NCBI GenBank assembly: GCA_044370285.1
Contig: JBILVU010000002.1
Coordinates: 22,785-86,784, forward strand
DNA from: Prosthecobacter sp.
Lineage (GTDB): Bacteria; Verrucomicrobiota; Verrucomicrobiia; Verrucomicrobiales; Verrucomicrobiaceae
Length of the DNA stretch: 64,000 bases
Reading direction: 5' to 3'
Below, piece by piece: positions 42,987 to 51,143 of the stretch; the stretch's first letter is position 1; each line of letters opens with the position of its first letter. Position numbers and translations under genes: made by a program. The notes under the pieces were generated by a model, which was not told the DNA's origin, searched no databases, and saw nothing but the letters and a program-made list of their open reading frames with translations.

Positions 42987-43322
42987 TTAAATCTCGCCAA
43001 AGTGCTTCTCACGGACGTCCACGATGGCGTTGAGCATCGTTTCGGCCTCACTGCGGACTTTAGCGTCGAGGCTGCTGGCGCTACGATTGAAGCGGCGATA
43101 GAGGAGCTTCAATTGGGCGCGGATTTCGTCCTTGCTCATCTTCGGCGTGATCTCGCAGAGCTCCTCGGGCGTTTGCACTCTGGCCGGAGCCGGAGGGGCG
43201 GCATTGCCTTTGGCGACTTGGTTGAGCACACCGCCTTTGGGGGCCTCGACGGGCTTTTTGACCTCGGCAGCGGGTTTGTGACCGGTGAGAGACTTCGAGA
43301 GGGATTTGAGGATCTTGAACAT
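42987..43322 (-). CDS. small J-domain-like protein lacking the HPD motif (candidate co-chaperone)
   Basis: 111 aa. Basic/Pro-rich N-terminus, then EITPKMSKDEIRAQLKLLYRRFNRSASSLDAKVRSEAETMLNAIVDV. This resembles J-domain helices II-III with NRS where HPD is expected. Lies 34 nt downstream of the Hsp70 gene. Confidence 0.45.
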   Translation of the reverse strand: MFKILKSLSKSLTGHKPAAEVKKPVEAPKGGVLNQVAKGNAAPPAPARVQTPEELCEITPKMSKDEIRAQLKLLYRRFNRSASSLDAKVRSEAETMLNAIVDVREKHFGEI

Positions 43323-43356
43323 AAATGGCGTGATTTGAGGTTCCTGAGTCCTGGGG

Positions 43357-50800: not shown

Positions 50801-51143
50801 CATTTTTGGTGGCGACGGCTTTGGAGGCGCCGACGGGGGCGAGGCCCTTCGGTGCTCGCTCGCGAAAGCGGCTTTCCAATTGGCCGAACATGATGCGATC
50901 CCCGCCTTTCACGCGGGCCTTCTCGATGCGCTTGCCGTTGACGAAGGTGCCGTTGGAGGATTTCAGATCGACCAGCTCGTAAACGCCGTCCGGCTGCTTC
51001 AGGAACTCGGCGTGGAAGCCGGAGATGAAGGTGTTGTCGATGACGATGTCGTTTTTCGCGTCACGACCGATGGAAAGACGGTCTTCGAGCACATCGAAGA
51101 CGAATTCGTTACCATCGTTGAGATTGAAGGCCAGGTACGGCAT
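44898..51143 (-). CDS. giant FHA-domain / coiled-coil / GrpE-like fusion protein
   Basis: 2081-aa uninterrupted ORF. N-terminal FHA, a P/S/T-rich linker, about 1850 aa of A/E/K/L/Q/T-rich heptad-like sequence with internal repeats, and a C-terminal 115 aa resembling GrpE. Confidence 0.85.
   Translation of the reverse strand: [2081 protein letters not shown]
44901..45245 (-). other. GrpE-like nucleotide-exchange domain (C-terminus of the giant protein)
   Basis: By-eye match to E. coli GrpE recalled from memory: [17 protein letters not shown] vs [45 protein letters not shown] vs [49 protein letters not shown] vs GYTLNGRTIRAAMVTVAK. Confidence 0.6.
48290..50215 (-). repeat. in-frame tandem duplications of 84-87-codon coiled-coil modules
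   Basis: A 22-nt core GGCGGACGAGGCGTCCGCGCTC (plus strand) recurs at 48558, 48642, 48819, 48903, 49617, 49701 and 49953, some copies with 1-2 mismatches. Offsets of exactly 261 bp occur twice and 252 bp once, with long near-identical flanks. Confidence 0.85.
50859..51143 (-). other. FHA (phosphothreonine-binding) domain at the N-terminus of the giant protein
   Basis: [64 protein letters not shown] carries the canonical G-R...S..H...NGT..N FHA signature. Confidence 0.85.

Follow-up and report, generated by a model that had tools for sequence, protein, structure and literature searches.

The window analyzed here, a stretch of 64,000 nucleotides (nt) of contig JBILVU010000002.1 from Prosthecobacter sp., a freshwater/soil bacterium of the family Verrucomicrobiaceae, contains three adjacent genes on its minus strand that together resemble the components of an Hsp70 chaperone system. 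The first open reading frame (ORF1, 44898..51143, 2081 amino acids, aa) combines an FHA domain, a flexible linker, a giant coiled coil and a GrpE-like domain in a single protein; the second (ORF2, 43357..44847, 496 aa) encodes a short Hsp70 that lacks the lid; and the third (ORF3, 42987..43322, 111 aa) encodes a small partner protein of the Hsp70. The gaps are 50 nt between ORF1 and ORF2 and 34 nt between ORF2 and ORF3, and the coordinates and spacings given in an earlier note, which was made from the sequence alone, are exact. In public annotations, ORF2 is labeled “DnaK” and ORF3 “hypothetical”. We put the probability that the trio represents a dedicated Hsp70 system, distinct from the housekeeping one, at about 60%.

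Domain architecture of the three proteins

The GrpE-like domain occupies residues 1918–2081 of ORF1 (44901..45392, minus strand, as are all features of the three genes given below), i.e., the last 8% of the protein, and comprises a segment of helical bundle and a β-domain, preceded by the end of the long helix. The Pfam GrpE family (PF01025) matches residues 1918–2062 with 30.6 bits, above the gathering cut-off of 25.8, and the isolated C-terminal fragment with 36.9 bits; precomputed PF01025 matches are also found on homologous fragments. In the AlphaFold2 model of the last 202 residues (predicted local distance difference test, pLDDT, 89), helices span fragment residues 2–79 (78 residues), 86–110 and 116–136 and are followed by a six-stranded β-domain. 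When this model was compared to PDB using Foldseek, the best 8 matches were all GrpE or human GrpEL1 (probability 0.96–1.00, best E 4.6e-6), and five of these 8 chains come from complexes with Hsp70. A sequence-profile search of PDB with the GrpE-like domain returned only coiled-coil noise because the profile contained at least 100 residues of the rod, and the Foldseek search was used instead. Given that profile and fold agree, the GrpE identity of this region, which had been aligned to GrpE only by eye in the earlier note, can be considered established, and we assign it as a GrpE-fold domain with predicted nucleotide exchange activity. The score with the housekeeping GrpE model of NCBIfam (PRK14149) is 13.6 bits vs. 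an equivalog cut-off of 176, indicating that this is a divergent paralog rather than the housekeeping GrpE.

The opposite end of ORF1 (residues 24–87, 50883..51074) is an FHA domain (Pfam PF00498, E 1.1e-19, 71 bits), as proposed previously, in which all phosphothreonine-binding residues are retained, namely the Gly-Arg (G26-R27), Ser-x-x-His (S41, H44) and Asn (N64) positions. This domain is 69–100% identical across 66 loci and, judging from the intact binding residues, is a true FHA domain that is predicted to read phosphothreonine. It is followed by a Pro/Gly-rich, probably flexible linker (residues ~96–185, 50589..50858) that carries 17 of the 26 prolines of the whole protein; no heptad periodicity is seen in residues 1–200.

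The rod proper (residues ~190–1900, 45444..50576) displays a single sharp spectral peak of hydrophobic periodicity at 3.5 residues in each 200-residue segment from residue ~200 to 1900–2000, and hence is a heptad coiled coil. Only 4 prolines are present between residues 182 and 2023, and A, L, E, K, T and Q account for 68% of the rod residues. The heptad region had been estimated at about 1850 aa; its heptad nature holds, and the periodicity and the proline count reduce its length to ~1,700 residues, which corresponds to ~250 nm if the coiled coil is continuous (0.15 nm per residue). Within the rod, residues ~320–920 (48384..50186) are internally repeated, with five copies of a segment centered on AEKSE.ELKSKR and seven copies of a second type of motif, and a tandem repeat is detectable at the DNA level at 49605–49759. 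The N-terminal third of the rod thus consists of recent internal repeats, which fits the large variation of the rod length between species.

We also considered whether ORF1 could be an SMC, Rad50, JetC, LmuB or crescentin protein. The matches to these families lie only in coiled-coil regions, score far below the respective cut-offs and are compositional; this includes the weak matches to LmuB and JetC obtained with PADLOC. Searches against Pfam, NCBIfam and PADLOC detected no ATPase head in ORF1. For two fragments of ORF1 orthologs (P0122 and P0136), the labels PF28217.1 and PF19443.5 are precomputed in Pfam, which the copy of Pfam that we searched does not report for ORF1. The part of the window from 46001 to 50000, inside the giant gene, has a strongly negative AT skew (−0.43) and a positive GC skew on the plus strand; these skews reflect the composition of the A/E/K/Q/T-rich coiled coil, for which the minus strand codes, and are not a replication signal.

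ORF2 is matched by the Pfam HSP70 profile (PF00012) with E 1.3e-104 over profile positions 2–509 of 599, and its best match in PDB is to residues 1–484 of Geobacillus DnaK. For the comparison of individual residues, it was aligned to a hand-typed Escherichia coli DnaK sequence, which passed a check of 15 literature-numbered residues. In the nucleotide-binding domain (residues 1–353, 43789..44847), the equivalents of the catalytic D8, K70, E171, D194, T199 and D201 of DnaK are all conserved, and the NEPTAAA motif is kept with R143 as the equivalent of R167, whereas the region corresponding to DnaK 76–101 is deleted. The interdomain linker DVLLLDVTPLSLG is replaced by the non-canonical EVCNASYG (residues 354–361, 43765..43788). 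The substrate-binding β-basket (residues 362–475, 43423..43764, aligned through DnaK 393–500) retains the P419 equivalent, the TSEDN loop and loop L3,4, with a substitution of S for A429 and an insertion in loop L1,2; the exposed NSDGER loop is kept as well. Beyond the β-basket, only a stub of lid helix A remains (residues 476–496, 43360..43422), after which a stop codon follows. Because no more than 21 residues of helix A are present and helices B–E of the α-helical lid (the α part of the substrate-binding domain) are absent, the designation “lidless” is correct, and the short C-terminus (...RIE) is also conserved in other Verrucomicrobiota. The earlier description of this protein, with the Hsp70 ATPase motifs, a β-sandwich domain and no lid, is thus borne out by these comparisons, and, as far as can be judged from conserved residues, the protein is competent for ATPase activity and possesses a β-basket for peptide binding.

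The scores of ORF2 with the DnaK equivalog models NF001413 and TIGR02350 are 370 and 359 bits vs. cut-offs of 648 and 822, respectively, and the score with the HscA model TIGR01991 is 290 bits vs. 708. At 370 bits compared to a DnaK cut-off of 648, ORF2 is not the housekeeping DnaK, in agreement with the proposal in the earlier note that this is a dedicated set. No canonical dnaK, dnaJ or grpE was found in the window or the related loci, which delimit this search. According to a 2026 review, truncated DnaK derivates are reported only where the genome encodes a bona fide DnaK as well (PMC13580251).

When 1.84 billion cluster representatives were searched exhaustively, the nearest relatives of ORF2 proved to be mostly 480–539 aa long (88 of the best 150). 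The canonical linker is present in none of these 88 short-Hsp70 representatives, and the most common variant is D/E-V-x-N-H-x-Y/F-G-T, with the strict pattern found in 17. On account of the length of its relatives, the lack of the canonical linker and the common linker signature of many of them, we place ORF2 in what, by sequence, is a large, coherent and uncharacterized subfamily of short Hsp70s (~500 aa). Each of the nine longer relatives examined (P0158, P0160, P0169, P0176, P0178, P0194, P0206, P0216, and P0238) contains two Hsp70 units, and these could be either true tandem fusions or merged gene calls.

ORF3 has 245 homologs, and every one with a source organism name comes from Verrucomicrobiota. 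Two parts of this protein are conserved, the N-terminal motif MFKILKSLSKSL (residues 1–12, 43287..43322) and a C-terminal domain of ~57 residues. In the N-terminal motif, which is kept also in distant homologs, M1, F2, K3, L5, S9 and S11 are invariant in our alignment A1, and residues 1–12 are amphipathic if drawn as a helix. The equivalent end of the relatives carries a transmembrane (TM) segment (loci L091 and L093) or a TerB domain (L092); by analogy, the N-terminal motif probably places ORF3 at the membrane.

The C-terminal domain of ORF3 is a helical hairpin resembling the J-domain (residues 52–108, 42999..43169). Only residues ~52–108 are modeled with confidence by AlphaFold2, with a mean pLDDT of 89–95 per 10-residue block over residues 51–110, and the model contains a short helix (helix I), helices 64–81 and 87–108 and the connecting loop 82–86 (A-S-S-L-D); no helix IV of the J-domain is predicted. 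In the Foldseek comparison with PDB, J-domains make up 12 of the 13 best and 22 of the 50 best matches (E 0.24–3.6). At the sequence level, Pfam, NCBIfam and PADLOC give no match for ORF3, including no match to Pfam DnaJ (PF00226) at E up to 1, and for three distant relatives of ORF3 there is no match to Pfam DnaJ at E up to 10. Searches of PDB with family and broad profiles of ORF3 retrieved no J-domain chains, and a small hand-built hidden Markov model of the J-domain gave no match when run against the translated ORFs of the window and the loci (1.39 million residues). The comparison of ORF3 with an alignment of J-domains using hhalign yielded P 0.08 and 0.07 for the Verrucomicrobiota alignments and 0.0024 when distant homologs were included; because the J-domain alignment (A3) was typed by hand, this result is a lead rather than a test. 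Thus, of the earlier assignment of a J-domain to ORF3, the part that stands is a fold resemblance, apparent from the ranking of the structural matches to the model, whereas no significant match to PF00226 or any other sequence match accompanies it.

In the best profile-profile alignment, the HPD tripeptide of J-domains is positioned opposite S84-L85-D86 (43065..43073), after a five-residue insertion, NRSAS. The invariant HPD is accordingly absent from ORF3, where SLD occupies the aligned position; S84 and L85 do not vary in alignment A5, and the same columns in distant homologs (alignment A6) contain HPD (L091), HSD (L092) and HSS (L093). The replacement of HPD by NRS that had been proposed previously is probably in the wrong register because NRS falls within the insertion.

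One further candidate identity of ORF3 was rejected. A phmmer match with E 7e-10 to the Gloeobacter protein Glr2806 (PDB 9k9w, chain M2) suggested a domain similar to phycobilisome linkers, but this value sums three near-identical repeats, the starts of linker repeats, with an independent E of 0.4–2.6 each. The match vanishes with the ORF3 family profile and is insignificant with the broad profile, and we attribute it to chance or composition.

Conservation, distant relatives and genomic surroundings

When GTDB was scanned at one genome per species, using the alignment of the GrpE-like domain as the query, 96 loci were detected, of which 80 were kept, all from Verrucomicrobiaceae or close relatives (Prosthecobacter, Brevifollis and metagenome-assembled genomes, MAGs). 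The GrpE-like domain is 64–99% identical across these 80 loci, and that of the window is 99% identical to its counterpart in the MAG JADJPM010000001.1. Downstream sequence was sufficient in 73 species-level Verrucomicrobiaceae genomes, and in 65 of these the three genes are contiguous and point in one direction. The giant gene encodes 937–2388 aa (median 1793 in 65 complete genes), the orthologs of ORF2 are 84–100% identical, and those of ORF3 44–95%. The Hsp70 is 496 aa long in 55 of the 80 loci, with the other complete calls reflecting upstream start codons. Where the genes are adjacent, the gaps are mostly 21–77 nt and reach ~240 nt. Each of the 65 contiguous loci, as well as L085–L090 and L093, has ORF3 directly behind the short Hsp70, i.e., ORF3 is an obligate neighbor of this type of Hsp70. 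The conservation of the trio that the earlier note had proposed to examine is thus apparent in related genomes, in which the flanking genes differ, and within Verrucomicrobiaceae the trio is inherited as a unit.

In one genome (L057), a 6-kb block (8583–14700) is located between the giant gene and an intact pair of Hsp70 and ORF3 genes. It encodes a 1306-aa protein with He_PIG/Ig domains on the opposite strand as well as a 357-aa protein, and includes a 33-residue fragment (8858–8956) resembling residues 15–47 of the Hsp70, which suggests that the Hsp70 gene was interrupted near its 5′ end by an insertion and subsequently repaired or duplicated.

A full but divergent trio is found in L089, which belongs to a more distant lineage, with identities of 47% for the FHA domain, 33% for the GrpE-like domain, 66% for the Hsp70 and 45% for the small protein. 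The conserved core is narrower than the trio, namely the pair of Hsp70 and small protein, which occurs by itself in four other Verrucomicrobiota loci. We further examined the context of four short Hsp70s with 42–46% identity to ORF2 (L090–L093). In L091, a membrane-anchored 488-aa GrpE-like protein (Pfam 24.1 bits, hhalign P 1.8e-4) is followed by the Hsp70 and then by a 403-aa TM protein with a C-terminal J-like domain that contains a true HPD (4647-5858). In L092, the order is a 264-aa GrpE-like protein (hhalign P 1.5e-5), the Hsp70, a TerB protein ending in a J-like domain with HSD (3248-4850) and an M48 peptidase. In L093 and L090, the Hsp70 is followed by a small TM or ORF3-like protein, the one in L093 being a 104-aa TM protein with the J-like C-terminus (1683-1997). 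The Pfam DnaJ model recognizes none of the J-like domains of L091, L092 and L093, even where HPD is present, and, going by their sequences, the J-like domain of ORF3 and these distant relatives looks like an undescribed domain family. Given that in L091 and L092, which are unrelated contigs, the short Hsp70 gene again has a GrpE-like gene directly upstream and a gene for a J-like C-terminal domain downstream, the order GrpE-like protein, short Hsp70, J-like protein is a recurring module, of which the form found in Verrucomicrobiaceae is the most elaborate version.

These relatives bear on an alternative view of the locus that we consider unlikely, namely that the giant coiled coil is itself the client or structure, such as a cytoskeleton-like filament or an envelope-associated rod, with the GrpE-like domain co-opted only as a handle on which ORF2 would dock as a remodeling ATPase for the assembly, disassembly or turnover of the rod. 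The rod would then be no tether for the chaperoning of other proteins. The ~1,700-residue rod resembles filament-forming coiled coils and weakly matches the rods of crescentin and SMC; it evolves by repeat expansion with no apparent constraint on length, while both ends are conserved; the system is lineage-specific; and the lack of the lid and of the canonical allosteric linker in ORF2 is what would be expected of a specialized remodeler. Nevertheless, the rod matches are compositional and far below the family cut-offs, and short Hsp70s elsewhere are paired with GrpE-like proteins that have no rod (the 488-aa membrane-anchored protein of L091 and the 264-aa protein of L092). Furthermore, because the pair of Hsp70 and ORF3 is conserved in Verrucomicrobiota with no giant gene nearby, the Hsp70 has some function for which the rod is not needed.

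Clustering of the flanking genes of 82 loci revealed only lineage-level synteny, so that no functional fourth gene could be recognized; the flanks are ordinary and differ between lineages. The clustered genes include a pseudouridine synthase, a polysaccharide deacetylase, metallophosphoesterases, the divergent lipoprotein described below and, in one clade, a small FHA-TM protein, and neither kinases nor phosphatases are consistently linked in these flanks. Within the Prosthecobacter clade, the small FHA-TM protein, with an N-terminal FHA domain 35–43% identical to that of ORF1 and a C-terminal TM helix, is encoded two genes upstream of ORF1 orthologs (e.g., L029, ~1561-2220, plus strand), and this position is occupied in the same way in 33 of the 80 loci; it is absent from the window. 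This protein may be a membrane-anchored paralog of the head of the rod.

The composition and distribution of the locus also speak to the possibility that it is a conflict or anti-phage defense locus in which the FHA domain and the coiled coil act as sensor and scaffold. Hsp70, GrpE, DnaJ and FHA domains have been reported in GTPase-centered conflict systems (PMC7159879), the coiled coil of ORF1 gives the weak PADLOC matches to LmuB and JetC mentioned above, and insertions are present beside the giant gene in some genomes. However, PADLOC matches are confined to the coiled-coil regions of ORF1, with none for ORF2, ORF3 or the GrpE-like fragment, and the trio includes no effector domain, GTPase, tubulin, vWA or MoxR partner. 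Moreover, the 80 loci kept of the 96 all come from Verrucomicrobiaceae or close relatives, the Hsp70 is highly conserved, the distribution is vertical, the neighbors are housekeeping genes such as lpxK, and the GC content (0.60–0.63) is like that of the surroundings. We consider a defense function very improbable.

Downstream of ORF3, the GC-rich hairpin that had been noted at 42963..42979 is present, with a 7-bp stem (CCGCCTC/GAGGCGG) and the loop TCC. It is located 8 nt past the stop codon of ORF3 and 54 nt ahead of the start of lpxK, which itself lies 77 nt past that stop codon. A terminator scan did not score this hairpin as an intrinsic terminator, and, as it has no T-tract, read-through into lpxK may occur. 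On the other side, a 258-aa predicted lipoprotein with no Pfam match (51302-52078, plus strand) is encoded divergently from ORF1, starting 158 nt upstream of it. Of 82 related loci, 46 have a homolog of this lipoprotein in an equivalent divergent arrangement, and the two genes could share a regulatory region.

The rest of the window is a housekeeping, lineage-typical context. The genes at 5151-13296 (minus strand), 61100-63274 (minus strand) and 33219-37394 (plus strand) encode RpoC, RpoB, the A subunit of gyrase/topoisomerase IV, an M3 peptidase and a 1391-aa protein with DUF7133, 3-keto-disaccharide hydrolase and cytochrome c domains. A 473-aa ORF at 52114-53535 is presumably a sulfatase, and we take the 580-aa product of 38917-40659 (plus strand) to be a queuine tRNA-ribosyltransferase, with a C-terminus ~200 residues longer than in typical bacterial Tgt, both being read by eye. 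Among the ten large ORFs of the window that were scanned, there are no chaperone, kinase or phosphatase genes.

Proposed mode of action and significance

Several observations weigh against the interpretation of the three genes as a single dedicated Hsp70 system. In ORF2, the lower of the two salt bridges of the nucleotide cleft is kept (R/E) but the upper one is lost (D/Q), the loop near DnaK 285–295, around the GrpE signature region, is 4 residues shorter, most of the canonical J-contact residues are changed, the substitutions at the interface including Q378F and D477S, and the allosteric linker VLLLDV of DnaK reads IQEVCN; with all these elements altered, a canonical interface with a J-protein or GrpE is not assured. 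The equivalent of R167 is Gly in those relatives whose partner keeps HPD or HSD. On the side of ORF3, no search produced a significant sequence match to J-domains, and the E values of the structural matches make their ranking suggestive rather than significant. No linked kinase or phosphatase gene is seen in the window, and both the dimer geometry and the phosphothreonine targets of ORF1 are inferred. Finally, in the four Verrucomicrobiota loci with the pair alone, no FHA or GrpE-like domain is encoded within 10 kb, and in 8 of the 73 Verrucomicrobiaceae genomes the giant gene is followed by unrelated genes on the opposite strand. The notion of a self-contained module, as put forward in the earlier note, thus describes the trio in 65 of the 73 genomes and does not extend to these other loci.

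Such observations would also follow if the giant gene and the Hsp70 pair were separate, with the GrpE-like domain serving the housekeeping DnaK or dimerization, ORF2 and ORF3 needing no exchange factor, and the adjacency being inherited synteny. The lost upper salt bridge and the shortened loop near the GrpE signature are compatible with this possibility, as such features in HscA and HscC go with fast intrinsic exchange and no dependence on GrpE (PMC8215388), and so are the four loci that have the pair without the giant gene and the 8 genomes in which the two are apart. Nevertheless, adjacency is maintained in 65 of 73 genomes despite differing flanks, the gene order is kept even in L089, with a GrpE-like domain of only 33% identity, two unrelated contigs again have a GrpE-like gene directly upstream of the short Hsp70, and ORF2 retains both the NSDGER loop and the lower salt bridge. 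All things considered, such a separation into two systems appears quite improbable.

For the dedicated Hsp70 system that we favor, a mode of action can be proposed. The two long N-terminal helices of a GrpE dimer form a parallel pair that continues into the dimeric bundle, and each dimer binds a single DnaK. Based on this architecture, ORF1 can be read as a parallel homodimer in which the GrpE stalk is prolonged into the rod, i.e., the GrpE helices would extend into a coiled coil of ~1,700 residues and ~250 nm. One end of the rod would then carry a single site for Hsp70 docking and nucleotide exchange, and the other end two FHA heads on Pro-rich flexible linkers. The GrpE end would dock ORF2 in the ADP or empty state and reset it, so that client release would be concentrated at the rod, while the FHA heads would fix the far end to threonine-phosphorylated partners; phospho-targeted tethering to kinase-marked sites is a step that we only infer.

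We further propose that ORF3 recruits or regulates the Hsp70 via its J-like hairpin, probably at the membrane, given that its relatives carry a TM segment or a TerB domain at the corresponding end. Because HPD, the DVLLLD linker and several J-contact residues are changed, control of the ATPase by ORF3 would require a non-canonical interface; alternatively, ORF3 may be a regulator rather than a stimulator, like HPD-less J-like proteins. With no lid, ORF2 is expected to have fast on and off rates for clients, as follows from the lid-deletion studies summarized in PMC8215388, and such rates would suit a localized or dedicated client better than general folding. Taken to its limit, this scheme would amount to a spatially organized Hsp70 cycle on a molecular ruler: membrane-proximal ORF3 would load the lidless Hsp70, the only cognate exchange factor would be located at the tip of a ~250 nm dimeric rod whose other end is clamped by FHA to a site marked by a Ser/Thr kinase, capture and release would take place at separate, defined places in the cell, kinase signaling would directly position the chaperone activity, and the wider family of ~500-aa short Hsp70s, with GrpE-like and J-like partners in unrelated bacteria, would represent a third general, membrane-working class of bacterial Hsp70 machines. 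In this full form, the hypothesis is speculative and rather unlikely to hold.

Bacterial Hsp70 biology rests almost wholly on DnaK, HscA and HscC. Specialized Hsp70 sets (HscA/HscB, HscC/DjlB/DjlC) and truncated DnaK derivates are already known. By contrast, our literature search found no report of a fusion of GrpE with an FHA and coiled-coil giant, of a dedicated GrpE-like partner of a lidless Hsp70 or of the J-like domain family of ORF3, in agreement with the earlier note, which knew of no characterized system of this architecture. In the 2026 review, the many truncated DnaK derivates are called “dark matter” that is unexplored, and the question is raised if J-proteins and GrpE are still used (PMC13580251). 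The present locus would provide a concrete answer for one large class, in which a ~500-aa lidless Hsp70 keeps its own GrpE-fold factor and J-like partner, and in Verrucomicrobiaceae the putative exchange factor is joined to a ~250 nm coiled-coil rod predicted to read phosphorylation.

Should the proposed interactions be real, this would be a first bacterial example of scaffold-positioned nucleotide exchange. A comparable arrangement exists in eukaryotes, where the exchange factors of the BAG family are fused to targeting domains. Such interactions would also link Ser/Thr-kinase signaling to chaperone localization. In addition, the comparison of ORF3 with its relatives appears to define a new, HPD-variable family of J-like domains, the members of which are not recognized by current profile libraries.

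Comparison with known systems

With the DnaK-DnaJ-GrpE system, the trio shares the same three roles encoded in one cluster, i.e., a β-basket Hsp70 ATPase, a GrpE-fold factor and a small helical J-like partner, and ORF2 keeps the catalytic residues, the R167 equivalent and the lower salt bridge. It differs in that ORF2 lacks the whole lid and the DVLLLD linker and scores far below the DnaK cut-off, the GrpE domain is fused to an FHA domain and a coiled coil, and ORF3 has neither HPD nor a match to Pfam DnaJ.

The mitochondrial import motor consists of mtHsp70, Tim44, Pam18, Pam16 and Mge1, where Pam16 is an HPD-less J-like regulator and Mge1 is soluble and not fused to a tether. The likeness to our system lies in the mode of working only: an Hsp70 cycle confined by tethering, an HPD-less J-like regulator and a GrpE-type factor. 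The motor is eukaryotic and organellar, has no FHA domain or coiled-coil rod and shows no homology beyond the shared domains. DjlA of E. coli, which combines a TM segment, TerB and a J-domain, is reminiscent of the ORF3 relative in L092, with TerB and a J-like C-terminus containing HSD, and of the other, TM-anchored relatives. However, DjlA has the canonical HPD and works with DnaK, whereas ORF3 has neither TerB nor a TM segment but only the amphipathic N-terminus.

In the GAP1-N2 GTPase-centered conflict systems of actinobacteria and firmicutes, Hsp70 and GrpE are themes along with FNIII-DnaJ or TPR proteins (Kaur et al., 2020; PMC7159879). The trio is similar to these systems in that non-housekeeping Hsp70 and GrpE genes are found beside accessory proteins, and dissimilar in that it includes no GTPase, FNIII-DnaJ or TPR protein and is distributed vertically.

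Another parallel is E. coli HscC with DjlB and DjlC, a specialized Hsp70 with a reduced lid and membrane-anchored J-proteins encoded nearby (PMC8215388). HscCs are 550–580 aa long and keep a shortened lid, their ATPase is stimulated by the J-proteins, and HscC is thought not to use GrpE (PMC8215388). Both are specialized Hsp70 paralogs with a deletion of the region of DnaK 76–101, adjacent partner genes and cofactors near the membrane, the last of these being probable for ORF3. In contrast to HscC, ORF2 is 496 aa long and has no lid, the partner has no HPD, and a GrpE-fold domain is encoded next door. As far as these features go, the deletion is shared with HscC; the length and the absent lid of ORF2 argue against membership in the HscC family.

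In Myxococcus and further complex bacteria, truncated DnaK derivates have a conserved nucleotide-binding domain, a shortened or deleted lid and modified linkers, accompany a bona fide DnaK and are functionally uncharacterized (PMC13580251). The review deals with the proteins rather than with co-chaperone sets dedicated to them, and its passages on these proteins mention no linkage to GrpE-like, J-like or FHA/coiled-coil proteins (PMC13580251), unlike the locus described here. In their overall architecture, however, the nearest relatives of ORF2 form a large class of ~500-aa proteins of the same sort.

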